Part shown: one piece after another, positions 9,160-63,600 of the stretch | Position numbering within the stretch: the first letter of the stretch is position 1 | Layout: each line of letters starts with the position of its first letter | Program-made: the position numbers and the translations under genes | Notes under the pieces: generated by a model | Database searches by the model: none | What the model saw: only the letters and a program-made list of their open reading frames with translations | Told to the model about the DNA's origin: nothing | Virus record (IMG/VR): IMGVR_UViG_3300028832_000101 | Span: 49,380 to 113,379 of that record | Direction: 5' to 3' (one strand) | Origin: a virus | Taxonomy: Duplodnaviria; Heunggongvirae; Uroviricota; Caudoviricetes | DNA: 64,000 nucleotides

Positions 9160-10086
9160 ATGAGAATTTTATTTTTATTAATAGGTATTATTGGTGTTAT
9201 TTTATGTATAATAGCATTTTTAAGAATAAAAGATACTAATGATAATAATAAAAAAATAGAAGAAGAAAATAAAAAATTATTAAAAGATAAAGAGATTATA
9301 GAAAAAGAAATAAAACTTTTAATTTTACAAAAAGAATATACACAAGAAGATTTGAATAAAATTAAAAATCTAACTTCTGATATGAATAAAGGCGCTTATG
9401 AAGCATTCTCTCAATACTGTGATACTTTAGATACAGAATATAATGTTATCGAACAAGAGTATGATAACACGACGAATGAATTAAAAACTGCATATGATAA
9501 CTTGCAAGATACATTAATGAGCAAGATAGAGATTGTGCAAAAAGAATTGGATAAAATTTCCGCAACCCGTGCCGCCGCATTAGAAGCTCAATTAAAAGAA
9601 CAAGAGGTAAAGAATAAACAATCTTTCTATTGTCCTCAAATTCCTGAAGATGAGTTAAGAGATGCTAAGACATTAAAAGATATAGAATATAAATTGAACA
9701 ATCCAAGAGTATTAAGAATGCTTATATGGCAAACTTATTATCAAAAGCCAATGAACCAAGTATGTGCAAATGTATTAGGTGCGGCAACCGCAGATATATG
9801 TGGTATATATAAAATTACCAACCAATTAAATGATTTAGTATATATAGGTCAAGCTGTTGATATGTCAACTCGTTGGAAAAATCATGCTAAAGCTGGATTA
9901 GGAATAGATACCCCGCAAGGAAATAAATTATATAAAGCAATGAAAGAAGATGGATTAGAGAATTTCTCTTTTGAATTATTAGAAAAATGTAAAAGAGAAG
10001 AATTAGATGAGAAAGAAAAATATTATATTTCTTTATATCAATCTGACCAATTTGGATATAATTCTAATTCAGGAATTAGTAAATAG
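9160..10086 (+). CDS. membrane-anchored coiled-coil protein with C-terminal GIY-YIG nuclease domain
   Basis: N-terminal hydrophobic helix ILFLLIGIIGVILCIIAFL; GIYKITNQLNDLVYIGQ...R..NH motif. Confidence 0.65.
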   Translation: MRILFLLIGIIGVILCIIAFLRIKDTNDNNKKIEEENKKLLKDKEIIEKEIKLLILQKEYTQEDLNKIKNLTSDMNKGAYEAFSQYCDTLDTEYNVIEQEYDNTTNELKTAYDNLQDTLMSKIEIVQKELDKISATRAAALEAQLKEQEVKNKQSFYCPQIPEDELRDAKTLKDIEYKLNNPRVLRMLIWQTYYQKPMNQVCANVLGAATADICGIYKITNQLNDLVYIGQAVDMSTRWKNHAKAGLGIDTPQGNKLYKAMKEDGLENFSFELLEKCKREELDEKEKYYISLYQSDQFGYNSNSGISK

Positions 10087-35220: not shown

Positions 35221-35718
35221 ATGATATTACTATCTTTAGATTTATCAACAAAGAGCTCTGGATGAGCAATCTTTGAAGATGGTTTTTTAAAAGATTCAGG
35301 ATGTATAGCATCTTCATCTACTGATTTACTAAAAAGAATTAATATAATGATAGATGGGATTAAAACAATAGTAGAAAAATATAATCCTAATAAAGTAATT
35401 GCAGAAGAAGTTAGACCTGAAAATGGTATGCAAAATTTAAAAACACATAGAGCGTTAATGTGGTTACAAGGCGGAATTGCTTTAATGCTATATGATTATA
35501 ATAAAAAATTAGAAATGGAATTAATATATCCTAGTTCATGGCGTGCGGCAATTGGTATTAAAACTGGTCGCGGCATTAAAAGAACTACTTTAAAAGAAAA
35601 AGATATTCAATTTGTAAAAGAAAATTATAATTTAGATGTTAATGATGATGAGGCGGATGCTATTTGTATTGGTTATTCACAATGTCATGATATAGAAACA
35701 GAAATAAATTGGGACTAA
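35221..35718 (+). CDS. RuvC-like Holliday junction resolvase (one in-frame TGA)
   Basis: LSLDLSTKSSGWAIF and DEADAICIGY catalytic motifs. Confidence 0.6.
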
Positions 35719-35742
35719 AATTAAAAATTTTTAAAAGATATG

Positions 35743-35772
35743 AACACTTTATCATAAAAAGTGTTTTTTTAA
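35743..35772 (+). terminator. intrinsic terminator aacacttt-loop-aaagtgtt + T-run
   Basis: 8 bp stem, tttttt follows. Confidence 0.5.
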
Positions 35773-35801
35773 TTTTCCTGCCAAATTTTAAGCAAATAAA
35801 A

Positions 35802-35838
35802 AAAGCACACTATTAAAAGTGTGCTTTATTTTTTTTTA
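35802..35838. terminator. bidirectional intrinsic terminator agcacact-attaaa-agtgtgct flanked by A-run and 12 nt T-run, at the convergence point of the two modules
   Basis: perfect inverted repeat; stop of minus-strand gene 35836-38 abuts it. Confidence 0.65.
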
Positions 35839-38682
35839 TAATTTTGTTTCTACTTGCGTTGCCGCAATAGTCATATTTCCACTAATTGAAAGTGGAATTG
35901 AGAATGTAGACATCATAAAGTCTCCATGAATATCATCTTGTTCAGATGTAACTGATATTCTTGTATTTGGTTCTAAATGATAAATAGGAATAGTAGTTAT
36001 ATTAATATTACTATTATAATTTGTATGTGCCCATAATAAATTTTTAATTTCATTAAAACAACTATTATGAAGTCCACCTATTACTATCATTTCATATATA
36101 GTAGGTTCTACAATACAATAATCTTGATTACGTTCTTCACACCATTGTGCTTGTTCTTCTGCTGTTTCATCATTTTTTATAATAACAATATCTGGAACTT
36201 CAGATTCAAAAACGCAATTATAATCATCACTATTTTTAGTAATACTTCTTCTTCCTATATTTTTTACACTAAATTGATCGATTACTGTATCGCTATCAAT
36301 AAAATCTAATCAATAATTAACATCCCAAGGATTATCTTTAACTTCTTTATAAAAATCTCCTACAAAAATTAAATCTCCACTTACATCATCAATATAATAG
36401 TCTGCCATTAAATTATATAATTTAGGTCATTCTGCAGCTAACTCTGCATAATAATAATTACTTTCTAAACCCAAAGCTTCTGCAGCGACCCCTTCAAGGT
36501 ATAACTCAGAGCGCCAATCAGTCGCTTGAACTTTAACTACAGGAGTATTAGTATAAGGAAGATATTCATATTGTTGAGCTAATAAATCATTTTTATCTTC
36601 TTCATATGTAATAGTTAAATTATCTATCTCTTCTTGAATAATATTTATTTCATTTTGAATTACAGCGATTTCAGCCCCATCTTGTTCAATTTCTGCATCA
36701 ATTGGAGCTAATTCTTCTTCTACCGGAATTAATTCTTCTTCTAAAAGTTCAATATCTTCTTCAAGTTCATTAACCCTTTCTTCTAGTAAATCTATATCTT
36801 CTTGATAATTATTGGCCCTTTGTTGAGCTGCATTCTTAATAAGTGTTGCATCTTCAATTTCTTGTTCTAATTCTGCTTTTCTTACTGGATCAGTTTCAAC
36901 TTCCCATTCTGCAGTTAATGTTGCTATTAGTTCCTCTTGAGTTGTTACAATTTCTAATTGTTCATTTTTTAATCCAGTAACTCTTGTAATTTCATTATTA
37001 ATAATAACTTTAGTTTCTTCTAAATCATTTATTTGTTTTTCAAGTAATTGTTTTTTATTTCTTAACAATATACTTCCTGATATTAATCCATTAATATCAC
37101 TTTGGATTGTATTGATTGTATTTTGTTTAGTTTGAATTTGTGTATTATAAGGCCTAATATTATCTTCATAATCAGCTTGTAAAGCAATTAATTCAGCCTG
37201 GATATGTCTATAATGCGTTGAATTTGTATCCAATCCTCAAATTCATTGAGTTCCATTACTTGTACTTCAATATACATAATTGAATTCACCGATTGAAGGG
37301 AAATCGCTTACAGAATTATATTGAAGATAAGGTCCGTTATCAAGAGATACATAAGCATTTAACTCACTATCTCATTTATATATAATTCCAGTATTTTCAT
37401 CTAGATAGAATATTCCATCTACTCCAGTTGAAGGAAAATGTGCAAAATTCATATATTTAATAGGACATTTTGCTTTTGTTAATCCATCTGCGGGGTCTTG
37501 ATAAAAAAATACTTCATATATATTTCCTGTTTGAGGTTTATTATCAATAGCTAAATGATAACGAATAGGCACTTTATAACCATCTGCATTTTCTTTTATT
37601 CCTCATACGACAAAATCATTTTTAATTCTATTGTATTGAGGACTATGTGAAAAACTAATAACTAATTGACTATCATCAAAACTATACATTGCTTTTCCTT
37701 TTGAGATATCAATTACATAATCATTATTTGTAATATTTTTTATATCTACTGTTGCTTGAGTAGTATTTAAATAATTTTTAATTTCTTGGAAAATAAAATT
37801 TCCATCTTTATCATAATAATATTCATAATTACCTAATGTATTTTTTATTTTGTCAAGAATAGTACAAACATTATCTCCCGCATTCGCATTTAGTTCTCCT
37901 GGATAAGTAAAATCAGTATAAATAAAACCAACATCTTGTCCATAAGCAAATTCTTGAACTATTCCAAATTCTAATGCTTCTGCTTTTGAAGTTGTAAATT
38001 TATGTTCTGTCCCATTTGTAGCTAAATAAAGTGGATTTGATCCAGTCCACTTCATTACTTGTTTTACTTTTTCATCTATATCATTTATAATAATTTTTCC
38101 TAATTGTTCATTTCCAAAATGATTAACCAATTCTCTAATAATCATTGATATTGTTGGTCTTGAAGTATATATTTCTCCTGTTGCAGTATTTACTGTATCA
38201 TATTTATCTAATGTTACTGCGGAAGTAATTACTCCTCCGCATTCTCCATTTAATAAACACATTTTGTCTTTAAATTGTGCAGATAATGTAGTTCCTTGGC
38301 CTAAAGAACTACTGATACTACAAGAGGTAATTACATATGTTCCTTGCGGATACCATAAAATAGGATAATCTGTATATTTATCTGTTGTATTTTCAATTCC
38401 AATTTCTATAAAAACTTTTTTATTTATAGAGATTAAATTATTCGCATCAGTTATTTTTCCTGTTGATACGTCCTTTACATTCATTGTTAAATTACAAGTT
38501 CTACGAACGGAAGAATTCCCATTAACTGAGATACTTCCGCTTGTAGCAATACCTTGAATTTCTTGTAAAGGTTTTTCATTTCAATCTAACAAAATAATTT
38601 TAATATATTGTTTTTGTAAATGTTGTAAATCAACTTCATATAGGAAATTGTCATCTTTTAAATAAGGATATATCTTTTTCAT
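35836..38682 (-). CDS. large tail-associated structural protein (about 948 aa) with central coiled coil; possibly tail tip/lysin-like; about 10 in-frame TGA
   Basis: track ORFs 35836-36090, 36427-37233, 37372-37572, 37603-38484 share one frame and are bridged only by TGA codons (codon-by-codon checked); ATG 38680-82 with RBS gaaggagaataat. Confidence 0.55.
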
Positions 38683-41053: not shown

Positions 41054-41079
41054 ATCTATCTCTCCTTTTATCTCAATCT

Positions 41080-41144
41080 TTTTTATCTTACTAAATAATA
41101 TTAAAAAACTAGTAAATAAATTATTTATATTAGGCCAAAATAAA
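41080..41144 (-). promoter_or_regulatory. conserved bipartite late-promoter-like motif, copy 1
   Basis: box B ATATTATTTAGTAAGATAAAAAA and box A TTTATTT(T)GGCCTAATAT with fixed spacing. Confidence 0.5.
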
Positions 41145-41145
41145 A

Positions 41146-41166
41146 AAGGAGCTATATAGCTCCTTC
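41146..41166 (-). terminator. intrinsic terminator aaggagctatatagctcctt + T-run on minus strand
   Basis: palindrome; contains stop codon of upstream gene. Confidence 0.6.
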
Positions 41167-44765: not shown

Positions 44766-44792
44766 TTATATTTTTCCTCCTCCAAAATATAT

Positions 44793-44856
44793 TTTTTATC
44801 TTACTAAATAATATAAAAGTTTGTTTATATTAATTATACATATTAGGCCAAATAAA
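44793..44856 (-). promoter_or_regulatory. conserved bipartite late-promoter-like motif, copy 2
   Basis: identical box B; box A TTTATTTGGCCTAATAT; same 46 nt register. Confidence 0.5.
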
Positions 44857-44858
44857 AA

Positions 44859-44887
44859 AAGATAGATAGTTAAAATCTATCTATCTT
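44859..44887 (-). terminator. intrinsic terminator aagatagatag-ttaaaat-ctatctatctt + T-run (minus strand)
   Basis: 11 bp stem; contains stop of gene 44886-46643. Confidence 0.6.
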
Positions 44888-46643
44888 AACTTCAACCATT
44901 TTCAGCTAAAGTTGTTCATTCAGAATAAGTTTTACATTTATTTTGTTGTGTAGAACTTAATCCAATATAAGTTAGTGTCTTAGTTCCAGTATAGTCGCTT
45001 GTTAAAGTTGCTAAAGAAGCTAAAATATTATGCAAACTTGTATCACTAAGTTTAGTACAACTACTAAACATATATTGACATGTTTTTGCTTTTGGCATAT
45101 TTATTACTGGAACACTATCTAATTTACTACAACTTTTAAACATAGAATTAAAATTAGTACAAATTGGAGTTAAAATTGTACTTGGAATATCTGTTATTTC
45201 GGAACAAGAATTAAACATATAACTACAATTTGTGCATTTAGATAAATCTAAACTACTAGGTATTGATATTAATTTACTACAATAATTAAACATATAACTA
45301 CAATTTGTAGCTTTAGATAAATCTAAATTACTATAAATATTAGTTAACGCCCTACAATAATAGAACATATTTGATAATGAACCAGTACAATTAGATGTAT
45401 TTATTCCACTTGGAATAGTAGTTAATAATTGACAGCTATAAAACATATAAGAAGCTTGTGTTAAACTAGGTAAGTTTATTGTAGAAAGAGTCGTTAATTT
45501 TGGGCAATAATTAAATAAACTGTTAGCATTAGTACAATTTGGAAGATTTAAAGGGATAGACATTTGTTCTAAATTTGAACAACTTGAAAACATCCCACTA
45601 ACAGATGTAGTTGTACTTGGAATAGTTAATGAATTACTATCTATTTGTTTTAATGCTGAACAACCTAAAAACATATTACTAAAATCAGTACCAGAAGATG
45701 TATTTATATTTTTAACTTGTTGTAATTTAGTACAATTATAAAACATTTGAGAAACAATTGTTGCAGATGAACAATCAATATTTTCAACTTTTATAAGATT
45801 ATTACAATTATAAAACATTTGAGAAACATTTGTGGCGGTAGAAAGATTAATATTATTTACTTCTTCTAAAGCAGTACATCCATAACAAAATTGTCTTCCT
45901 GATGTACTTTGACATAAAGGCATATTTATATTAGATAATTTTTTTAAATTAGTATAATTTTTAAATCATGTTGAAATAGTTGAAGTAACACTTGCAAGAT
46001 TATATCCATCTATTTCTTCTACTGTTGTTGGGAAAAATTTAATTCCTGAAGTTAAACCTGATAAATTTATATTATATACTTTTTTTATATTAGAACAATT
46101 ATAAAACATAGAACTCACATCATTATAATTAGTTATCTGAGACAAATTAATATCTTTAATAATTTCTAAGTTTGTACAATTTTGATACATATAAGAACAT
46201 CTAACTGCTTGAGAAAAATCAAGAGCAGGAGTTTCTTTTAAACCAGTACATCCACTAAACATGCCATAAAAATCTCTTCCTTTTGAAGTATCTAACGTTC
46301 CTGCAGGAATTTTTTCCAAGCTTTGACATTTATTAAACATATAATTAAAAGTTATTCCATTTGAAGTATTTATAACTGGAATATATTTTAAATTTTTACA
46401 ATTAGTAAATAAATAAGAAAAGTCATCAAGAGTGCTATAATTACAATTTTTTATAAAAGATGCATCTTCAAATAAAGAATTTCCAAATTTTATTTTATTA
46501 GAAATAGCAGAAGGAGTAGATGAAGTATTGATAATAGTATCTGCCATATCTCTAGGTTTATATACAGCATTCAAATTGTTAGTTTTAATTCTTAATGCAT
46601 CAGCAATATCTGTTAAACTATTTTCATCTATTAAAACATTCAT
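44886..46643 (-). CDS. BspA-type leucine-rich repeat (LRR_5-like) Cys-rich protein, about 585 aa
   Basis: repeated NMFxxCxxLxxI units; track ORFs 44916-45923 and 45966-46643 bridged by TGA; RBS aaggaggt. Confidence 0.6.
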
Positions 46644-46658
46644 ATTTTAAACCTCCTT

Positions 46659-47786
46659 CTAATATCCTGTAGTCCAGCCCATGGCTTCTAATGCCGCCCA
46701 ATTTGATAAAGATGTACATGTAGTAGCTTGACTTTGAGAAAGTCCTATATGAGCTAAAGTTTTAGTTCCTGTGTAATTAGTTGCTGTTGAAAGTGTTTGT
46801 AAAATATTATTTAGACTAGTGCTTGTAAGATTTGGACATCCAGAAAATATGTCCATTAAAGAATATTGATTTACAACATTTGGAATACTAAAAGCAGGAA
46901 TATCTCTAAGCGCATCGCAATAAGCAAACATATCTTCTATATCTTCTGCAGCGGGAATCGTAATAGAGCTAACTGACACAAGATTATAACAATCTAGAAA
47001 TGAACAATTAAATCCAGTTGCTTTTGGAGCATTTAAAGATGGAATTGAAGTTAAACCATGGCAAGATACACAAATATTATCCAAATTAATCGCCTCTGGT
47101 AAACTTCAATTAGGGAAAGTAATTAAACCGCATCCTTGAAAAGTGCCATCAAAATCTTGTCCTTTAGAAACATTGTAAACAGGAATAGTTGTTAAATTAC
47201 TACATCCTGCAAACATTCATCGAAAGCTTGTTCCGTTAGAAAGATCAAAATTACTTGGAGAAGGAAGAGTAGTTAATTGAGAACAGTTTGCAAACATATT
47301 TGCAAAAATAGTTCCTTTTCCAACTCTCATTCCTTCAAAAGTTGTTAAATTATTACAAGCCTGAAACATGGTTCCAAAATTAGTACCATTTCCTGTTGGT
47401 AAAGAATTTCCTTGTGCTAAAGTTATTGTTTCTAGATTACTGCAACCTGAAAACATACCACTAAAATTTAAACCTGCATCAGCAGGAGTTGTACTTAAAT
47501 AAGGGAAAAAATTTGTTCCTACTCCAGTATTGGAAAACATGCCACTAAAGTCAGTTCTATTTCCAATAGGATTATTTGAAACCATATTAAACATATAAGC
47601 CATTGCAGAAAGGTCGCTTCCTGAATTCCCAAAACTTATAGTATTAATATCTGCTTGGGAAGAAGTTGAACTAATTGCATCTGCCATTTCTGCAGGTTTT
47701 AATTTTAAATATGGATTTCCTTTTACTGTTCTAATTGCATTTGCAATATTTTTTAAAGCAATTTCATTTACTCAAACATTTGCCAT
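46659..47786 (-). CDS. second BspA-type LRR protein, about 375 aa
   Basis: track ORFs 46659-47084 and 47217-47687 merge via TGA; ATG 47784-86 overlaps stop of upstream collar gene. Confidence 0.55.
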
Positions 47787-52020: not shown

Positions 52021-52094
52021 TTTTAATCCTCCTTTTATATCTATGCGGTGGCCGGTTAAAAGATTCTTAGACAAGGCTCCCGCAATATTTTTTA

Positions 52095-52159
52095 TTTTTT
52101 ATCTTACTAAATAATATTAAAAATTAATTAAATTCATTAGTTATTTTAGGCCAAATAAA
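52095..52159 (-). promoter_or_regulatory. conserved bipartite late-promoter-like motif, copy 3
   Basis: identical box B; box A TTTATTTGGCCTAAAAT. Confidence 0.5.
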
Positions 52160-52161
52160 AA

Positions 52162-52181
52162 AGATAGTATCTCTACTATCT
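52162..52181 (-). terminator. intrinsic terminator agatagtatctctactatct + T-run (minus strand)
   Basis: contains stop of GT2 gene. Confidence 0.55.
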
Positions 52182-53683: not shown

Positions 53684-54472
53684 TTATGCCGTTCTATTTC
53701 AAATATATACACAAACATAAGGTTCAATATTATCTGTATTACCTACATTTCCGCTAGGTGCTCCAGTAGTTCCAGCCGCAACAGTGTGAGTATGTGAACT
53801 TGTATGACTATGATTAAAACTATGATTATGAACCATTGTATGCGTATGATCTATTGAGTGTGTATGCCCATTTATACTATGAGTATGATTATATGTATGG
53901 CCATGTGAAAAATTCCACCATACATATCCCCAGAAGTCTGCATTTGTACCATCATGAGCATAACGTCTATTACCATCAGCCCAACCAATATAGATACCCG
54001 CAGCATCTGAATCACTTTGTCCATCTACGAACATTAATTGATCTGGTAATTCATCTCCTAGATTTCAAGATAAACCAGGGTCTGCAGCATCTAATCCTGG
54101 ATCTCTATCATCTGTATCAATAGATGCAGTTGATATTGTAGGACTTGTTGAACTTGAAGTTCCTGCAGCCGCTTGACTAACAGTAGGACTTGTACTACCT
54201 GATGTAATACTTATTGAGTGTGTATGCGCGGGAATGCTATAAGAACCATAACTAGTTCCTGCAGCATAAGTATGAGATGAATCTAATTGACCTGCGCCAA
54301 TTAATAGTCTACCTGCTCCATATGCAACCCATGTTCCACCAAATATAGAACCTGGATTTGTACTTGATGTAGAAATATATATACTTCCAATAGGATAAAA
54401 ATTATCTACATTTCAAATTTTTCCTGATATATGACTGTCTCCAGCCACAATTAAATCTTTTATAAATGCCAT
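53684..54472 (-). CDS. His-rich collar-domain tail protein paralog 1 (262 aa)
   Basis: N-terminus MAFIKDLIVAGD...YPIGSIYISTSSTNPGSIFGGTW, HTHSINGHTHSIDHTHT repeats, C-terminus EPYVCVYIWNRTA; RBS aggaggtg. Confidence 0.65.
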
Positions 54473-54484
54473 CTTCTACACCTC

Positions 54485-55276
54485 CTATGCTGTCCTTTTC
54501 CACATGTATACTCCGATACATGGTTGTAAGTTTCCTGAAGTTCCAGCTCCAGTAGATCCAGAAGTTCCTGTAAAAGTATGAGTGTGCGCAAAAGTATGAG
54601 TATGTGCTTCTATTGAATGTGTATGAGCACTTCCATGACTATGACTTGCGCTATGATGGTGACTGTATGAATGTCCATGATTTGCACTATGTGAGTGTCC
54701 CATCGCATATCTTATTTTTCTCCAAGAGTTACTTGATGTACCACTTGTTTTAAATTGATGGTAATCCGCAAAAGTAAACCAAATTCTTGAAGAACTATGT
54801 GAACCTTTTTGCGAACAGAAAAATCTTGTTGGAGAAGCAGCATCACCAGCTAATTCAGTACTACTTGTTGCTGAACTGTTTCCTGATGATGTACTTGAAT
54901 TTCCAGTATGTTCAGTCGTAGAACTTGAATTAAATGCATCTTTATTTGCTATTCCCATATCACCTGTGAGTGTCTCTGCAGCAGCCTCACTTGAAGTTGC
55001 AGAAATACTATGAGTATGGTCTTGTATATCTAAGGAACCGCCTTGTTCATTTGCGGCAATAGTTTTTGTTTTACTTTGCCCATCAGTTCCAGTCCCAACT
55101 CCCATTAATACTCTTCCAGTACTAAATACTTCTCAAGTACCACCAAAAATATCTCCTGGATTAGTTGAATTAGTTGATATATAAATAGAACCAATAGGAT
55201 AAATACTATCTACGAAATGCGCTTTTCCCGCAATTCTTAAATCTCCTTTTACTATTAAATCTTTAAAAAATGCCAT
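54485..55276 (-). CDS. His-rich collar-domain tail protein paralog 2 (263 aa)
   Basis: MAFFKDLIVKGD...YPIGSIYISTNSTNPGDIFGGT; GHSHSANHGHSYSHHHSASHSHGSAHTHSIEAHTHTFAHTHT; ends LQPCIGVYMWKRTA. Confidence 0.65.
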
Positions 55277-55292
55277 ATAAACCCCCTCTTTC

Positions 55293-56123
55293 CTAAGCCG
55301 TTCTCTTCCACATATATACACCTTGATAAGGTTGTAAATTATTTGCTGTGGTTTGGTATGTAATTGAAGGATGACCTGTAGAGCCTGAAATGGTATGACT
55401 ATGCGCGGCAATAGTATGGCTATGAGAGAATGTATGACTATGTGCAGCAACACTATGTGTATGTTCAGGAATTCTATGGTAATGACTAGGTACTGTATGA
55501 GAATGGGAAGGTAAACTATGATTATGAGACATATTAATATGCATATTTGCCCAACCATTTGTTGATGAACCACTGTCTTTAAATCTTCGATTACTACTCC
55601 ACTTAACAGCCGCTCTATCTCCACTGTTACTATAATAACACATATTATTACTTAAGTTATTTTGATGAGTCATGAAGATATTTCTTTGGTGGTCACCACT
55701 ATTACCACCTGCTCCAGACCAATTACCTGTTCCACCTGAAGTTCCGCCAGTATTCCCACTAGTTCCTCCACCAGTTAAGCCTTCAGTATTATCACCTGTA
55801 TTACCTGTCGTAGTTGAAGTAGTTGTATTATTTGCGGAAGTCATTGCCGCAAAACTATGAGTGTGTGTACCTATATTATAACTACCCCCTGTTGTTCCTC
55901 CAGTAAATGTTTTTGTAACACTATCTTTATCTGTATAACTACCTGCACCGATCAAAGAACGACCTTGTCCAAATGCTTCTCAAGTTCCTCCAAAAAGTTG
56001 ACTTGGATTTGTAGAGGCAGTAGACATATATATAGAACCTATTGGATACATACTTTCCAAAACGTTTATTTTTCCTATAAATCTGGCGTCTCCGCTGACA
56101 AATAAATCTTTTAAAATCGCCAT
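55293..56123 (-). CDS. His-rich collar-domain tail protein paralog 3 (276 aa)
   Basis: MAILKDLFVSGD...YPIGSIYMSTASTNP; HNHSLPSHSHTVPSHYHRIPEHTHSVAAHSHTFSHSHTIAAHSHT; ends LQPYQGVYMWKRTA. Confidence 0.65.
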
Positions 56124-56149
56124 ATCCTTCTACCTCCTTTTAATGAATT

Positions 56150-56212
56150 TCATATCCATTAAATATTATAAAAAATTGATTAAAATTGTTATTTATATTT
56201 GCCCAAATAAAA
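56150..56212 (-). promoter_or_regulatory. degenerate copy 4 of bipartite late-promoter-like motif
   Basis: box A TTTATTTGGGCAAATAT and diverged box B at the same 46 nt register. Confidence 0.4.
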
Positions 56213-56235
56213 AAAGATAGGCATAAGCCTATCTA
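56205..56235 (-). terminator. intrinsic terminator agataggcataagcctatct + T-run (minus strand)
   Basis: contains stop of gene 56229-56663. Confidence 0.55.
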
Positions 56236-56663
56236 GGAATCATACTAAAGTAATAATATACTTTATCTTCTTTTGCATCTTCATCACAAATAAAATCTTT
56301 ACTGAATTTAGCATAATATTCTACATTATCATTAAATAAATCATTGTAATCATTATAAGCACTATTCATTACGATTCAAAAGTCAACAGGTCTAATATTC
56401 TCATAATTATATTGTTTTCTTACTCCTTCAGTATCTTCAAGAGTTCATTTCATTCCATAAGGTTTCATATTTTCAATTAAACCTTTTGCTATTTCTTCGT
56501 TTAACACTTTGCCTTCAGACATTTCATATAATTTTCTTTCAATTTCTTCTTTATCAATAGCATTAGAATGCTCAATGATATGAGATATAAAATTAATTAA
56601 TTCATCTTTCTTATCATTATTATCTGAAGACATTATTTTACTGACATATTTTTTTATTTCCAC
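56229..56663 (-). CDS. hypothetical 144 aa protein (GTG start)
   Basis: track ORF 56445-56663 continues through TGA to TAG at 56229; RBS aggagg. Confidence 0.5.
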
Positions 56664-56675
56664 AATAGCCTCCTA

Positions 56676-57239
56676 TTATATTGATGTATAAGGACATTGA
56701 TAATAACAAGGAGGATTTAATACATATCTACCTTGTAAATTTAAAATTGAGTCAGTTGAGTTTTGAATAGCGGCAGTGATTGCTGCAGTTTGATTTGCGT
56801 TAGATAAAGCATCTCTAGTTGTTTGTAATTTATCACTTATTTCTCTAATATAGTTATCTTGGATCATTTGTCTAGTAGCATTTCCTTCTTGAGCAACTAG
56901 GTTGCCAATTGCGGCGATACTATTACTTAATTGTAATGACATATCTTTCATACTTACTAAATTATTATAAGCAGAGTTTAATACAGTATCAGTAATTCCA
57001 CATTGTCCTTGAGCTAATCCTCTGATTGCATTATCTTGAGATTGGAAATATAAGCTATTTTGTAAATCGCTTTGACCTAAAGCAGTTGCACTATTTCCCC
57101 AGAATCCTCCATTTCCACCAAATAATAAGATGAAAACGATAATTAATGCTAAAATACCATTTCCTCCAAATAATCCGTCTCCGCTACCTTTAGTTAATGC
57201 TAACACATCAGCAGCTGACATTCCTGTACTTTCATTCAT
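56676..57239 (-). CDS. Gly-rich membrane protein, 187 aa
   Basis: hydrophobic ILALIIVFILLFGG; RBS ggaagggga. Confidence 0.55.
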   Translation of the reverse strand: MNESTGMSAADVLALTKGSGDGLFGGNGILALIIVFILLFGGNGGFWGNSATALGQSDLQNSLYFQSQDNAIRGLAQGQCGITDTVLNSAYNNLVSMKDMSLQLSNSIAAIGNLVAQEGNATRQMIQDNYIREISDKLQTTRDALSNANQTAAITAAIQNSTDSILNLQGRYVLNPPCYYQCPYTSI

Positions 57240-57294
57240 TTTTCTTTCCCCTTCCTAAATATTATTTATTTATATATAATAAAAAGTTAGTTTC

Positions 57295-57519
57295 CTAACC
57301 TTTATTACCATTAATTAATCTAATCATTTGCGCAAGTTGTTCTTTACTTATTCCGCGTTCATTACACATCTTAGCGATAGCTTCCGCCTGTTCATTATTA
57401 GGTCTATTATTAATATTGTTAAAAAGTTGTAACTGTTGCGGATTTAGTAGACTTAACAACGCTTGTTGTGGTTGATTTGACATCATCACTTGCGACATTA
57501 GACTTTGTAGATTGACCAT
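57295..57519 (-). CDS. Gln-rich small protein, 74 aa
   Basis: RBS ggagggg; overlaps 3' end of next ORF. Confidence 0.45.
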   Translation of the reverse strand: MVNLQSLMSQVMMSNQPQQALLSLLNPQQLQLFNNINNRPNNEQAEAIAKMCNERGISKEQLAQMIRLINGNKG

Positions 57520-57877
57520 TTATAATCCCCTCCAACTCTTTCACTTTTGTTTCTAATTCTTCTATTTTTAAATCCTTTTCATCTTTAGGAATAATAATAT
57601 CATAACTTTTACTTATTGTTCCATCAACTTCTTTAATAGATATTTTCCCTTTATGTTCATCTATAAATAAAGTTTTTTTAGTAATAAGAATATTATTTAT
57701 ATCATCATCTTTTGTTAGATATTTTATTTCAATATCAGAAGAACTAGATGTATTAATGATATTTTGAACTGGAGCTTGTTGATTCATCAATCCTTGACTA
57801 TATTGATTTATCATATTTTCAATATTATCTTTTTGTCGATATAATTGATTAATCATTCCATTATAATTATAAGGCAT
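57419..57877 (-). CDS. hypothetical 152 aa protein with coiled-coil C-terminus
   Basis: RBS ggaagggga. Confidence 0.5.
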   Translation of the reverse strand: MPYNYNGMINQLYRQKDNIENMINQYSQGLMNQQAPVQNIINTSSSSDIEIKYLTKDDDINNILITKKTLFIDEHKGKISIKEVDGTISKSYDIIIPKDEKDLKIEELETKVKELEGIINGQSTKSNVASDDVKSTTTSVVKSTKSATVTTF

Positions 57878-57906
57878 ATAAATTCAATCCCCTTCCTAAA
57901 AACAAA

Positions 57907-57951
57907 AAACCGCACAGTAGAAGTTAACGAATTAATCTACTGTGCGGTTTA
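57907..57951 (-). terminator. strong intrinsic terminator accgcacagtaga...tctactgtgcggt + TTTTTTGTTTTT on minus strand
   Basis: 13 bp GC-containing stem; sits inside the leader of gene 57419-57877. Confidence 0.65.
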
Positions 57952-57955
57952 ATTT

Positions 57956-58020
57956 ATTTTCAATCCATTTCCAAGAGTAAAATCAATCCTTTTCCTTTGA
58001 AGTAAATTAATTCAATCCCT
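57956..58020. repeat. three direct repeats of TCAATCC(n)TT(T)CC spaced about 24-25 nt
   Basis: tcaatccatttcc, aatcaatccttttcc, attcaatccctctc. Confidence 0.5.
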
Positions 58021-58161
58021 CTCTAATTCGAGATTAAGAGAAAAAGATACATCAGAAATTCTTTCTTCTTTTCCCTTACATGTATATATGAATTTTAGCT
58101 TAGCCAAATTATAAAGATTGTCCCAAAGTTGTAAAAATTTTTGCTAAAATTTCATAGCTTA

Positions 58162-58809
58162 TTAAATTTCAATAAAATCATTAGCAACAATATCTTGATT
58201 TTGAAAAATTTTTGCTTTATCTGTAATAGATAAACTATCATTATCTATACGAAGATATACATCTAAATAACCTGTTGTAACAACAGCTTGGTTATATGCA
58301 GGAATCCCGCCATTATGTCTTGCAGAAGCCCCAAAAGCACCTCACCAATTTCCTTCAGTACCATTATTACAACAAATATAAGTATTTGCACTAGCTACTT
58401 TATATGCTCCTCCATAATTTGATGATGGTGTCGTATATCCTGTAGTTGTTATGAAAGTAATATTAGCTGGAGCAACATTACTATAAGTTGCTATATTAGG
58501 ATTATAATTTTGAACCCATCTAAATTTAGATTCATTTGCAGTATCAGTTGTTTTTTCTTTTACTAATATTTCTCATTTAGTAGCACTATCAAATAAATTA
58601 AATTGTGCCCATCTATTCGTATCTTTATATACTCCATTTGCAAAACTATCTGAATTAGAGAAAATATAAGATGCAGGATTATTATGATGCAATACTTGAA
58701 TTCATATAGAACCATCTGGTTCAGTAATAATTACTGGATTAATAGCAGTTTGAAAAGAATAATTATTCATATAATTATTATTCCATATTCCATTTTTATA
58801 TACACTCAT
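58162..58809 (-). CDS. hypothetical 215 aa structural protein, possibly lectin-like
   Basis: full manual translation; RBS aaggagg; CCNNGTEGNWWGAFG segment. Confidence 0.55.
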
Positions 58810-58811
58810 AA

Positions 58812-60590
58812 TTATTCCTCCTTAAATTCATATGCATACATATTATTTGCGTTATCTACAAAACCGGCAGTGTCATATAATTGTTTTACATCTGCGGCAG
58901 ATAATGCAGTTGCATATATACGGAAGTCAGATAAACTACCATAATTTTTTGTATTTCAGCCTGTTCCTGTATAAGTGTTTCCAATTGAATTATTTAATAA
59001 TGGAATAGTAGTATCTGTATAAGTATTTTTTGTTAAAGTTTGTTCAACTCCATTTAAATATCATTTTGCCGTTCCTTTATTAAATACATATACTGCATGA
59101 TATCAAGTTCCTGCTGTTAATAATGAACCTCCTGCAGTATATTTACTTCTATAAGCTCATAATCCACAACCTTCACAATTTGTTGCTATTCATAAACCAG
59201 CCCCGGCAGGATTGTTATAAGGAGACATTATGCAACAATAACCACCATTTGAAGCATTGGGTTTTACTCAAAAAGAAATAGTTAATTCAGCCATATCAGG
59301 TATAGATAAATCAGTTTTTAAACCATCAATTCCTGTTGCACAGCTACTTCCCCCATTATATCTTGGTGCGGTAGAGTCAAAATTCAACGTTCCAACTTTT
59401 GTAGCATTATATCCATTTCCGCTTACATCAGTAAGTATCATATTATCAAAACCTAATTTAGAATACATAACATCACTTGAATTTGGTATTCAATCTGTTG
59501 CAACCTCTCCAATTTCAATTTTAGGATGTCTATACTTTATTGTTCCAGTAGTATCTCTCATAAAGAAACTTACATTTAAACCAGCTATATCATAATTTGT
59601 AACAGTTACAGTACAACTATATTTTACTCATCCAGTTGTAACTGCTGTAGGGATAGTTTTTCCGCCATATCAATCTAATCACTGATTGCTTCCCCCTGTT
59701 GTAGTATTTCTTGTAACAGACAGTTCAAAACCAACTCAAGGATTTGTAGTACCAAAGGTAAGTGCTTCTGTAATTTTATATTCCATAGAAAAAGTCAATT
59801 TTTTATTTTTAAAATCAGTTAATCCTGCAGTATCCATTGTTTGTGAAAAACTTATTCCAGATGCTTGAAGAGTATCAGAATGAAAAGTTACTTCATCTCC
59901 ATCAAAAGTATAAATTCCTGCATTAGTTTTATTAGACCAATCACTATTTTTAATATAATTTTTACCAGCTCCCATCTCCTCCAATTTATAATGACAAACC
60001 AATCCCTTTGAAATTTCTTTTATTTGTTTACGAGATAGGCATTCATCATATACACGTAAATCATTCATTACTCCTGTAATGATATTATTATTTTCTCCTA
60101 TATGAAAATCGGTAATTAAATACCCGCCTAATCCAGTATCTGTGTATAATAGACTTCCATCTACATAGGTGTAGAGATTTGCACCATTATAACTTACACA
60201 ACAATGATGTCAAGTTCCTTTTTGGCTTTCTTCAATTAATACTCTTGTCGCCTGCGTAACCCCAAAAGGTGAATTATTATGAAAACTACATGCTCTTGTA
60301 GATTGTGTTGCTTCAAATCTAAATTGAGCAGCAGCAGTTCCATCTGCTTGTTTACAAGTAAATCCAAGAGAATCGGCTCAATCTGATGTACAGCTATCTA
60401 CTTTTAATCAAAAACATATTGTGAAATTATCTAACCTAGATAAATTAGTAAAAGTAATTCTAGGAGATAAACTTAAACCCTTTCCGATTTTTCCTCCATT
60501 AGAATATGTAGGAGTTCCTGATACTGATAAAAAATCTATACCTTGATTTTTTAAGTTACCATTAAGAGGCAACCATACTCGTAAAGCCAT
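58812..60590 (-). CDS. tandem LamG/concanavalin-A-like lectin domain protein, about 592 aa
   Basis: MALRVWLPLNGN..., MNDLRVYDECLSRKQIKEI and C-terminal LSDFRIYATALSAADVKQLY are LamG hallmark motifs; track ORFs 59736-60068 and 60408-60590 joined by TGA. Confidence 0.6.
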
Positions 60591-60601
60591 ATGATTACCT
60601 C

Positions 60602-63600
60602 CTAACTAAAGATAAATTCAATACATTTATCTGTTGAATTATATTGAACTGTTGCGGCAGATGTTAATCCAATCTTACCATTTCCAGTTGTTATTTTATT
60701 TGGGAAACTTGTATTTCCACTTGCGTCTAATAATGTAGCAGTTCTGGTTATTGTAGCAAAAACACCACTATATTGTCTAACATAAATAGGTTCATTACTA
60801 TCGTCTGCAGTAGCAATTTCTAACCAACCTGCATTAGCGGCAGTTGCTCCTGCGGCAATTCTACCATAATCATTATCCCCAGCTTTAAATTGAACTTGTC
60901 TAGTGCTTGTTCCACTATTGGCAAATAGTAAATCACCTGTCATAGTGTCTCCAGCTTTTAATACATAATCACTACCGCCACCTCCGCCAGTAGGAGCATA
61001 AATTTTTGTAGATGTGCCATTAATCTTAATAGTACCTATTTCAGTTCCTTCTGTTAAAGTTTGAGTAAATGAAGTAGTACCTGTATTTAAAATTGTTCCA
61101 CCTGTTGTTGGGAATGTATGAGTAGATTCAGCAGTGGCAGACGCTGTTGCTTTTACTGTCGCAAATCCAGCCTTTTCTGCATATATTCTAATTTCGCCAT
61201 ATTTATTTCCTGCAGTTTCTGTCGCAGTAGCATTTCCTAAAGAAAGAATTGATCTACCTGCAGCACTTGCAGTACCTTGTAAAGAATAATATCTTAAACC
61301 ATCATTAGCATTAACTCCATTGGTACCAGATGTAGCTGTATACCATGTAGGGTAATACCAAGTACCTGTTGTTGGATTAGTATTTGAAATAGTTACTTTA
61401 TTATTAGTATCTGTATAAACTCTTGTAGTCCAATTTCCCCAAGTTCCATTAGTACAATATCTTACATAAGAATTGTTTGGGTTATTTGCATTTGTAAAAA
61501 TTTGTCTTGTTATATAATCTGAAGTACTAGCTCATCTAATTACATCAACATCTAATAAGAAAGGTTTACCTGTAACCGGGATATTAGTTATATTATTAGA
61601 GCCCCCATCAGTTTTTTCAATATAATGCATACTATTAGGACTTCCCGCAGATAAGTTTAAAGTATTAATATCTAAAGTTTGACTTGAAATATCAATTCTA
61701 TCATAACCTTTTGCATAGAAAGCTCCTGTACTTGGATTTGCAGTAAAATTAACTGATTTATTTGAACCAGCAGTTTCAGTAGTATCATTAGCTGAATTAG
61801 ATAATAATAATCTATAAGCTGAAGCTGTTGTACTATTTGTTTGAGTTACTTTATTATTTGTATCAGTATAACAACTACTAGGAATTGTTCCACTTAACTT
61901 TGTAGCATCTAGTGTACTACTAGCAGTTAATGGAGTAATTGTATTACTTCCAAGAGTAATAACCCCACTAGCAATTTTCGCATCTGTAATTCCATAACCA
62001 CTTAAAGTTGTTGGATTAGTTCCCGCAGTAACGTGTCCTGTTGCATTAACAGTTACACTTCTATATGTTCCCGCGGTTACACCTGAATTGGCATGTGATA
62101 AAGTTCTAGTTCCACTAGTTGTAATTGCGGAAGTACTATCAATAGCAATAGGTGAAGTCGCTTTAATTGTGACACTCGTTACAGTTCCACTAGGTTCATC
62201 ACCTGAAGGAATTAATACCCAAGTATTAGCACTTGAAGTTTTTGAATCACATACAAATGTATCTCCAATTTTTGCAGCTTGGCTTGCATAAGTACCTGCA
62301 GTGATAACTTTATAAGTATCACCAACTGATGCACTACCATCAACAGGTAATGCAGTAATAGTACCATTTGTACCTAAACTACCTTTAAATACCATTGGAT
62401 CTGGTAAATTATCAATAGCAGTTTGAACAAAGGCAGTTGTTGCAATTTGTGTGGTATTTGTTCCTGCAGTAGCTGTTGGTGCAGTAGGAATACCATTAGA
62501 AATTCCAATTGCTTCTTTATATGTATTACTTACTGTATTACCTAAACTTAATTTAGCATTTGCATCATCAGTAGTACTGAATGTTGTAACACCAACATCT
62601 GCAGTAGTTGCCGAATAATCTACTTTAAATCCATCTGTAGAACCTGTTACTGTAAATAAATTTGTACTAGCTATTGTTCCACTTGAAGCAAGAGCACGAG
62701 TAATAGCACCTGTCATTGCTCCACCAGATTTTTTAAGATAAGTAGAATTAATTGCATTCCCATCACTATCATTAGTAGCTTTACCTGCACTAGTCGCATA
62801 AGGGACTGTAATTGATTGTGCATTTCCACTACTTGGCGTTAAAGTTATTTTATTATTAGTTGTATCTGCAGCTAAAGTATAAGTAGTATTATTATCTGTT
62901 CATGGAATATTAACTGATAATTTTCCATTTTTATCTAATCCTACTGCATATTGTTTATTTGCAGTAGAACCCATATCTACGGCTTCAAGAGTAGATTTAG
63001 TCTCACTCTTTAAATTTGCTTTAATTGTACCTGTTGTAGTAACATCTCCACCTGTTAAACCTGCTCCAGTAGAAACTTTAGTTACAGTACCTGTATTAGT
63101 TGTATAACCTTTACCTTCAACAAAAGAAGCAACCGCTTGAGATGTAGGTAAATTAGTACTTGTACTAGCTGCGGAAATTGAAGTATCTACAGCTTTAGCA
63201 CTTGCAGCCGCTAAAGTATATCCATTATAAGTTTTATTTGTTAATGCTTGTGTATCACTTAAATTAACAACTTGTTTACTATTACTATAAACATGTCCAT
63301 CAGTTCCAACATAAGCAGTATCTTGTGAATAAGTTTGTGGATTAGCTGCTTGAGATTTGGCTCCTACGATAAAAATTTTATCTGAAGTATCTGTTGAACC
63401 TGCAGTATTTTTTGTATCACTATTATTATCAGTAGAATGACTCATCCAAACCCAATATGTACCATCATACATATAATAAAGAATTCTGTTCGCATAACCA
63501 TAAGCAGTTGTATTAGTGCCTGTATTTCCAGCTCCACTATGAGTATTATTATACCAAATATTTTTAGCTCCTGTACTATTTACATTTAATGTTATAGGAC

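Follow-up and report, generated by a model that had tools for sequence, protein, structure and literature searches.

Introduction

The late genes of phage lambda lie behind the late promoter PR', which has a conserved element in its spacer, an untranslated leader of about 190 nucleotides (nt; the 6S leader), and a strong intrinsic terminator, tR'. Read-through depends on lambda Q, a DNA-binding protein that modifies RNA polymerase, and it occurs without an antiterminator RNA helix. In the infC-rpmI-rplT (L20) leader of Bacillus subtilis, a conserved 5' domain pairs over a long range with the terminator in an antiterminator that was identified through covariation (PMC1865079). There, read-through is the default and binding of the L20 protein provokes termination (PMC1865079). 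Here we describe a leader on the minus strand of a 64,000-nt stretch of DNA from a virus of the Caudoviricetes (positions 49,380 to 113,379 of IMG/VR record IMGVR_UViG_3300028832_000101), which we refer to as the window. Its parts follow one another in the order promoter-like box, GGATTGA repeats, terminator with T-run, ribosome-binding site (RBS), and the ATG of a gene for a 152-amino-acid (aa) protein. We consider it probable, with moderate confidence and on the basis of sequence comparison, that this region is a cis-acting kinetic antiterminator/terminator attenuator and the leader of a late transcription unit.

The phage leader resembles the L20 leader in being about 200 nt long and in that a conserved upstream strand and the leader terminator would form a long-range antiterminator. 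However, the L20 leader pairs with the 5' side of its terminator, whereas the phage leader binds its terminator at the apical loop and the uppermost 3' arm; the two have no sequence similarity, and one precedes a ribosomal-protein operon while the other precedes a phage late-gene module. With lambda PR'-tR' the leader shares a late promoter-like box with a spacer element, a short leader, and a terminator ahead of late genes. Unlike in lambda, a conserved, covarying RNA helix competes with the terminator, the box also occurs at late promoters without a leader terminator, and no Q-like gene was found in the window. As in the trp, pyr/PyrR, and T-box attenuators and in riboswitch platforms, there are exclusive helices, one of them a terminator just upstream of an open reading frame (ORF), and the choice would be made during transcription. 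Unlike trp, pyr/PyrR, and T-box leaders, this one lacks a conserved aptamer or specifier, a leader peptide, and any known protein-binding repeat, and it is the loop that is captured rather than a full arm.

One feature expected of the attenuator class is present in the leader, namely a second helix that excludes the terminator and is maintained by covarying changes, the exclusion of the lower stem being a topological argument. At Rfam gathering thresholds, no family matched the window or six relatives (L20_leader, PyrG_leader, the trpB motif, and T-box included). Sub-threshold matches to the PyrG leader and the trpB motif scored 26 to 28 bits against thresholds of 59 to 65 and were driven by the terminator. 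By analogy, we rate the element as one that would act like a classical protein-dependent attenuator, outside any described family.

Results

The leader is conserved ahead of the same gene in related phages

The 152-aa protein has 275 homologues, all of them unannotated. We used as relatives the 28 loci that had enough upstream sequence, taken from IMG/VR, JGI, ENA, and Logan assemblies. These are from gut or rumen phages, and together with the window they make a family, so far, of 29 loci from phages that read TGA as an amino acid. We found the same leader directly ahead of the homologue of the 152-aa gene in 28 of 28 related loci, whose proteins are 62 to 95% identical. Two distant homologues, L265 and L266, are without the element.

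In the relatives the leader consists of the box, an A/U-rich segment ending in ATATATAyATG, usually a hairpin (P1), a purine-rich motif with the consensus AAAGGGAAAUGGAUUGA, a spacer that varies from 1 to 47 nt, the terminator with its T-run, and the RBS. The distance from the terminator to the ATG, which is taken up by the T-run and the RBS, is 27 to 43 nt in all leaders and 29 nt in the window. This leaves no room for a promoter, and thus the downstream module would depend on read-through. P1 is a hairpin of other sequence in the same place in the relatives, and it is missing from the L248/L254/L267 and L256/L258 lineages. Because it is absent from two lineages, it is not an essential aptamer.

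We built a covariance model from 22 relatives, with the window left out. The model had a single match in the 64-kb window, at 57899-58003 on the minus strand (59.7 bits; E ~2e-7, the E-values of purpose-built models being rough). It found one element per related locus, including lineages outside the seed and four test loci that were fetched later. We also scanned viral contigs with the 14-nt motif and the 19-nt box; the matches listed were mostly chance, and filtering added only L176/L208 and L164.

The upstream motif pairs with the apex of the terminator

The motif GGAAAUGGAUU is complementary to the apical loop of the terminator and the top of its 3' arm, AAUUCAUUUCC. When the upstream 75 nt were searched for the best duplex with the apex, the motif was the answer in 21 of 21 leaders, with 12 to 14 contiguous pairs and -11 to -16 kcal/mol, compared with -6.7 kcal/mol (standard deviation [sd], 2.1) for shuffled apices. 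Compensatory variants were present in several relatives: L245 has GGAAAAGG with CCUUUUCC, L256/L258 have GGAAUGAAAAAUG with CAUUUUUAAUUCC, L249/L257 have one additional A in the motif and one additional U in the apex, and L263 has matching changes in motif and apex; the window itself, with copy A and its flank, is a further case. In double-mutant cycles for L245, L263, L257, and the window, each motif paired more favorably with its own apex than either cross did. None of 20,000 permutations of the apex labels reached the cognate mean.

A column-wise pair count on a plain MAFFT alignment, in which the loop and the 3' arm were out of register, was dropped and replaced by these register-free duplex tests and by covariance-model alignments. 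In the alignment to a second model, 89% of the cells in the helix columns were paired, compared with 42 to 62% in slid controls. Seven of 11 pairs were changed on both sides (2.5 in shuffles; sd, 1.1) and the covariation score was 0.263 versus 0.153, a value that 0 of 500 shuffles reached; this formal count comes from related sequences in an alignment fitted to the structure. In 20 of 20 genomes the sense strand gave the stronger helix (-13.7 versus -7.9 kcal/mol), which relies on G-U pairs. This advantage of the sense strand argues that the helix belongs to the RNA transcribed from the minus strand and is no inverted repeat of the DNA.

We found the helix in the minimum free energy (MFE) structure of the nascent RNA, folded as far as the apex, in 22 of 24 leaders, while the complete RNA favored the terminator by 9 to 19 kcal/mol. 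In these predicted folds, such a preference is the signature of a kinetic antiterminator/terminator switch. In the window, the duplex of repeat copy A and its flank with the apex was predicted at -18.5 kcal/mol (13 + 5 bp; RNAduplex), and it is the MFE pairing of the nascent RNA. In the double-mutant-cycle comparison, no other apex suited the strand with copy A as well as the apex of its own leader, and the other copies in the window pair with the apex at only -8 to -10.5 kcal/mol (RNAduplex).

The terminator is strong and its stem covaries

The terminator hairpin folds at -23.6 kcal/mol with a nominal loop of 14 nt and is the strongest terminator-like structure in the window. A first terminator scan, which was limited to loops of 8 nt or less, overlooked it. 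With a stable hairpin and TTTTTTGTTTTT on the transcribed strand, it is an intrinsic (Rho-independent) terminator. Across the family, 14 of 14 pairs of the stem have changes in both partners, and pairing holds in 96.8% of cells versus 30 to 50% in slid controls; 0 of 500 shuffles reached the observed values. The hairpin and the 12-nt T-run had been noted before, with a stem of 13 bp where we count 15, and the RBS does, as had been stated, come only after them. In this genome alone, the 14-nt loop TTAATTCGTTAACT (57922-57935, minus strand) could form TTAA/TTAA pairs around a UUCG tetraloop, which would extend the hairpin.

The repeats are clustered in this genome

Five copies of GGATTGA (A to E; Table 1) lie within 232 nt on one strand, the first three spaced 29 and 23 nt apart. 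The first-pass annotation had counted three, at a spacing of about 24 nt. The heptamer is not over-represented in the window as a whole (7 found versus 8.0 expected). However, five of the seven are within these 232 nt on one strand, and the cluster is thus not due to chance. In the relatives that we inspected, among them one with a 95% identical protein, the motif occurs only once. Judging from these sequences, the threefold repeat looks like a recent peculiarity of this genome rather than a conserved feature, and copies B and C, like the copy at the RBS, seem to have been added in this genome only. The repeats had also been proposed as sites for a regulatory protein or RNA; the partner that we could demonstrate is RNA in cis, the apex of the terminator, and not a regulator.

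The roles of the copies may differ. Copy C, which matches the family consensus exactly, pairs weakly with the diverged apex of this genome (-8.1 kcal/mol). Copy B is the one that the covariance model built from the relatives aligns to the family motif. It can also form a weak local hairpin with the antiterminator strand (-6.8 kcal/mol), which could form before the apex is made, and it may be an anti-antiterminator. More speculatively, the extra copies in general may be anti-antiterminators or additional binding sites, one of them at the RBS.

Two protein-binding elements have some likeness to the repeats. CsrA/RsmA leaders or sponges have several GGA motifs, typically in hairpin loops, with one over the Shine-Dalgarno (SD) sequence. 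The window has five GGAUUGA copies, one of them at the RBS, but the relatives inspected have a single copy and the GGA lies outside hairpin loops. The ribonucleic antiterminator (RAT) element of BglG/SacY/LicT is an imperfect hairpin of about 29 nt, GGAUUGUUACUGC...GCAGGCAAAACC, that overlaps the 5' arm of the terminator. We rejected it as a match: only the 6 nt GGAUUG are common, and the phage motif is single-stranded, lies 1 to 47 nt upstream of the terminator, and pairs with the apex. No PRD-type protein was found among the window proteins.

Table 1. Features of the leader and the module behind it, in order along the minus strand
Feature	Position	Strand	Sequence or parts	Basis or remark
Promoter-like box	58135-58108	-	TTTACA 58135-58130; spacer element TTTGGGACAA 58127-58118; TATAAT 58113-58108	
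A/U-rich 5' leader segment	58107-58079	-	..AAGCTAAAAT..CATATATACATG	ATATATAyATG with invariant columns in the alignment of the relatives
Hairpin P1	58078-58035	-		Folding; position kept, sequence variable, dispensable
Repeat copy A with flanks (antiterminator 5' strand)	58022-58002	-	AGAGG...TGAATTAATTTAC; GGATTGA 58018-58012	
Repeat copy B	57989-57983	-	GGATTGA within GGAAAAGGATTGATTTT	Heptamer search
Repeat copy C	57972-57960	-	GGAAATGGATTGA; GGATTGA 57966-57960	Exact match to family consensus motif
Intrinsic terminator hairpin	57950-57907	-	15-bp stem AAACCGCACAGTAGA (57950-57936) / TCTACTGTGCGGTTT (57921-57907)	
Antiterminator 3' strand	57940-57919	-	Terminator apex and adjoining stem tops	Duplex prediction
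T-run	57909-57898	-	TTTTTTGTTTTT	Read from sequence; kept in all leaders
RBS	57896-57888	-	AGGAAGGGG	Read from sequence
Repeat copy D	57890-57884	-	GGATTGA	Read from sequence
Start codon	57877-57875	-	ATG	Read from sequence
Repeat copy E	57793-57787	-	GGATTGA, inside coding sequence	Heptamer search; may be a chance match
Downstream module	57877-56229	-	152-aa gene; overlapping 74-aa ORF; 187-aa protein with a single transmembrane (TM) segment; 134-aa DUF7841 protein	

The box belongs, probably, to a class of late promoters

The TTTACA-N16-TATAAT element that had been noted upstream is present, with the consensus base at 11 of 12 sigma-70 positions, and it is the best sigma-70-like match within 56500-59500. 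Such matches are common in DNA of 29% G+C; we found 28 in the scan versus 21 expected. The sequence TTGGGACAANNTTNATAAT has a single zero-mismatch occurrence in the window. All relatives have the box, with the family form TTTGGGACAAaGTTTATAAT, and the element that separates the -35-like from the -10 hexamer shows higher conservation than the -35 itself. Its activity as a promoter is predicted from these properties.

Related TTTGGxCxAA...TATAAT boxes follow terminators ahead of other genes of the minus arm. Four copies of an intergenic cassette of about 70 nt were found on the minus strand (41077-41146, 44790-44859, 52093-52162, and 56145-56214). Each has, in order, the T-run of a terminator, TTTGGCCTAA...TATAAT, about 20 nt, TATTATTTAGTAAGATAAAAAA, and an RBS, and a 22-mer of the cassette has three exact copies versus 0.06 expected. 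The cassette looks like a late promoter unit specific to this phage, and the box of the leader is probably, by its sequence, a member of one of its late-promoter classes. In these other intergenic regions of the minus arm, the terminator comes first and the promoter-like cassette second, the reverse of the order in the leader. The long box TATTATTTAGTAAGATAAAAAA was considered as evidence in its own right and left unused: it occurs only in the nearest relative (flanks were short) and is no commoner there than in control loci.

A kinetic attenuator is the preferred reading

Transcripts would start at the promoter-like box or come from the upstream fiber genes, which have no terminator of their own. 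The purine-rich motif would emerge first, and the working strand here would be copy A with its flank. Once the upper part of the terminator hairpin was made, the motif would pair over 12 to 18 bp with the loop and the top of the 3' arm (and, in the window, with the upper 5' arm as well). The long-range helix would then hold the terminator's 5' arm trapped, and the stem could form only by displacing that helix. If the helix were not displaced until polymerase had left the T-run, transcription would continue into the module of the 152-aa gene, the 74-aa ORF, the TM protein, and the DUF7841 protein. The terminator being more stable at equilibrium, the decision would be a kinetic one.

The order of the parts in the RNA is motif, 5' arm, apex, 3' arm. 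Therefore, the helix encloses the 5' arm and leaves no linker on the 3' side, and by this topological argument the full terminator and the full helix cannot coexist. Minimal leaders, in which the motif directly adjoins the 5' arm, show the enclosure most clearly. As the nascent RNA leaves the motif free, we expect read-through by default; an occupant of the motif would let the terminator form, by the logic of the L20/infC leader of Bacillus. Conservation is far higher in the motif and apex than in the stem, and thus something probably recognizes them. As the trigger we would favor, with low confidence, an RNA-binding protein, of the phage or of the host, that occupies the motif.

Several points weigh against an attenuator. 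The greater conservation of motif and apex is one of sequence, and most of the variation in the helix is one-sided (G-C to G-U). The compensatory changes come from about five lineages that are not phylogenetically independent, in addition to the limit on the formal count given above. The helix overlaps the terminator only at the apex and the top pairs, and it is topology that argues against a coexisting lower stem. Much the same picture would result from a leaky terminator whose pseudoknot-like contact served only structure or stability. The use of the promoter, the efficiency of termination, the control of read-through, and the identity and sign of the trigger are all predictions from sequence. 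There is no conserved aptamer-like domain in the family, P1 being dispensable, and no RNA-binding protein, sigma factor, or antiterminator was recognizable among the window proteins, which represent about half of the genome. Of the attenuation or antitermination layout that the first-pass annotation had suggested, the arrangement itself holds: it is kept in 28 loci, the motif-apex helix covaries, and there is no room for a promoter between the terminator and the gene. An active promoter and regulated read-through stay predicted parts of it.

Alternative explanations

Instead of an attenuator, the region could encode a small RNA (sRNA) of about 100 to 200 nt, stand-alone or derived from the leader, with the motif as the seed for trans targets in host or phage mRNAs and with downstream expression as leakage. 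We think this unlikely. The leader does have the parts of an sRNA: a promoter-like box, a 5' hairpin, a most conserved segment that is single-stranded, and a Rho-independent terminator with a U-tail. The sequence of the motif is also more conserved than pairing alone demands. However, covariation links the motif to the apex of the terminator in the same RNA and so points to an intramolecular role. The element occurs once per genome and never away from the 152-aa gene, which has no promoter of its own. Complementary sites in the window were not enriched (36 versus 28.8 expected; sd, 5), and the best of them was the motif on the other strand. The terminated leaders of known attenuators can act in trans, and a trans role would thus be compatible with attenuation.

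It is less likely still that read-through is brought about by factor-dependent processive antitermination, as in lambda PR'-tR'/Q, ops/RfaH-LoaP, or put RNA. In lambda, such a unit combines the Q gene, an element in the late promoter that binds Q, and a promoter-proximal, sigma-dependent pause. Here TTTGGGACAA or the motif would load a phage factor onto RNA polymerase, which would override this terminator and later ones. The conserved element in the promoter spacer, better kept than the -35, is like a Q-binding element, the leader is short with a strong terminator ahead of late genes, and there are further terminators along the minus arm. However, the TTTGGxCxAA boxes are also found ahead of late genes without a leader terminator, and therefore the box looks like a general late-promoter feature and not a Q site. 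The later terminators each have their own promoter-like cassette after them, and thus processivity is not needed. We recognized no Q, NusG-like, or other antiterminator family among the window proteins, and the covariation of motif and apex would be left unexplained.

The simplest explanation is an ordinary junction, in which the hairpin ends the fiber operon and the promoter-like site and repeats are AT-rich chance or the remnants of duplication. The upstream 215-aa gene has no other terminator after its stop, and some transcripts from upstream must surely end at the hairpin. As noted above, sigma-70-like matches are common, and the triplication is found only in this genome among those inspected. 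We nevertheless hold this explanation to be very improbable. The arrangement as a whole is kept over 28 loci, as are box, motif, and complementarity of motif and apex, despite protein identities as low as 62% and despite differing upstream genes. The clustering of five of seven heptamers is not chance, and elsewhere in the genome the order is terminator and then promoter. Recent horizontal copies of one sequence could account for such conservation, but the divergent terminator stems argue against them. That the hairpin is just the terminator of the upstream operon had been named as the scenario that would refute attenuation. It probably is that terminator too, and because no other one follows the upstream gene, this is compatible with attenuation.

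Finally, we give hardly any credence to a leader peptide that senses the TGA code switch, with suppressor-tRNA read-through of the ATG GAT TGA in the motif bringing a ribosome into the terminator, and we rejected it even though ATGGATTGA is kept in most leaders, TGA is recoded in late genes, and the extended frame ends at the terminator in some relatives, because variants lose the ATG (AAG in L245 and L263, with a compensating apex change) or the TGA (the L248/L254/L267 and L256/L258 types) yet keep the complementarity, the downstream frames are not conserved and in some cases cross the terminator into the next gene out of frame, and the SD-like GGG is only 3 nt from the ATG.

Implications of a probable attenuator

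A broader proposal is doubtful. The leader might be the first recognized example of a phage-specific riboregulator family that is absent from the sources checked and probably present in hundreds of uncultivated genomes. In such a family, a loop-capturing strand and a phage-encoded factor would time a membrane-protein module that is possibly associated with lysis. The element may be one of the more than 8,000 anonymous candidate RNAs from IMG/VR in a catalogue of phage structured RNAs (PMC10690425).

What is known of recoded gut and rumen phages comes entirely from metagenomes, and control of their late genes has so far been discussed only as translation, through stop-codon reassignment. If the proposal were true, these phages, which already gate late genes by TGA recoding, would have a second, transcriptional timing lock. 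A leader with covarying alternative helices offers a testable handle on their transcriptional control, and the covariance models provide a defined RNA element for annotation of the Rfam type. The leader also marks the start of a conserved late module that adjoins hypervariable fiber genes. Its geometry would be unusual for an attenuator, since the antiterminator seizes the loop of the terminator and not an arm, and at about 70 nt in the minimal forms it would be a compact model for kinetic control of termination. If the downstream module is related to lysis, the leader would bear on how the timing of lysis is secured.

The downstream module and its neighbors

The module behind the leader closes at a terminator at about 56234-56207 on the minus strand. 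Its gene order is kept in 14 of 15 relatives, namely those in which the locus reaches far enough (L256 ends too early), and the TM protein is about 190 aa long. The 74-aa ORF (57295-57519, minus strand) shares 101 nt with the 3' end of the 152-aa gene, from which it differs in frame. We found it present at full or nearly full length in 15 of 15 relatives tested, with 53 to 97% identity, and it is either a true overlapping gene or the product of a programmed frameshift. Gene callers leave this stretch empty on related contigs. Comparison of the 152-aa protein with PHROGs and Pfam gave nothing useful. Its AlphaFold model was middling, with a predicted local distance difference test (pLDDT) score of 66, and Foldseek against BFVD and PDB found no informative fold (TM-scores of 0.2 to 0.3). 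These comparisons speak neither for nor against the protein as an autoregulator that binds RNA.

The gene upstream of the leader encodes 215 aa, has its TAA stop at 58164-58162 (minus strand), and is without a family match. It had been called lectin-like; the Laminin_G_3 domain in fact sits one gene further up, at 58812-60590 (minus strand). No homologue of the 215-aa gene was found in any of 15 relatives, and the gene ahead of the leader differs among them. A distant blastn search of GenBank phages with 2.4 kb around the site found no match.

There is a hint, by analogy, that the module is linked to lysis: it includes a TM protein, a CHAP gene occurs in one relative, and a lysis cassette is described in the Agate phages (see below). 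In that relative (L274:1-356; ERZ841272 NODE_35), a gene with a weak match to CHAP, a peptidoglycan hydrolase, lies two genes upstream of the leader; nothing else close to the element hints at a lysis enzyme.

The phage and its two gene arms

The window has 29% G+C and two converging arms of genes. Genes of the plus arm (1-35.7 kb) are readable in the standard code and serve replication and nucleotide metabolism; their products include topoisomerase II-like subunits, an NAD-ligase-like protein, a helicase, a primase, Pol III alpha, and NrdD. Long ORFs emerge in the minus arm (35.8-64 kb) only when TGA is taken as a sense codon, and these encode tail, baseplate, and fiber proteins. In-frame TGA is almost absent from the replication genes of the plus arm (1-35718) and frequent in the minus arm (35836-64000); the ORF at 58812-60605 has 14 TGA and 2 TGG codons in frame. 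No tRNA genes, suppressor tRNA included, were found in the 64-kb window.

Phages of the TGA-recoded "Agate" clade have genomes of about 127 kb and use TGA as Trp only in their structural and lysis modules. The survey of recoded phages that describes this clade contains no occurrence of promoters or terminators. Our phage and its relatives are like the Agate phages in several respects. Related contigs are 104 to 138 kb long, TGA is a sense codon in the structural and not the replication arm, GC skew gives two replichores, and a heavily recoded tail protein lies just upstream of the TM-protein module. The likeness is one of recoding and layout, the terminase being outside the window. Unlike in the Agate phages, no endolysin was found when the window proteins were searched for one.

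The arms meet at about 35700-35900, where there is a bidirectional terminator hairpin (35774-35859). The sign of the GC skew flips at about 36 kb, at this junction, which suggests a replication terminus and two replichores. Among the replication genes, at 9160-10086 on the plus strand, lies a gene for a protein with a GIY-YIG nuclease domain and an N-terminal TM/coiled-coil region, which may be a homing endonuclease; comparison with Rfam revealed no group I intron. On the minus strand, two adjoining genes at 44886-47786 (585 and 375 aa) encode many degenerate repeats of about 24 to 25 residues rich in N, S, C, and F. Several DNA repeat families there have periods of 72 to 81 nt, and the genes match only PHROGs of unknown function. 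Three tandem paralogous fiber genes at 53684-56129 (minus strand) encode a Gp10_C-like N-terminal domain and His-rich HxH repeats, and their N-terminal parts and repeats are DNA repeat families.

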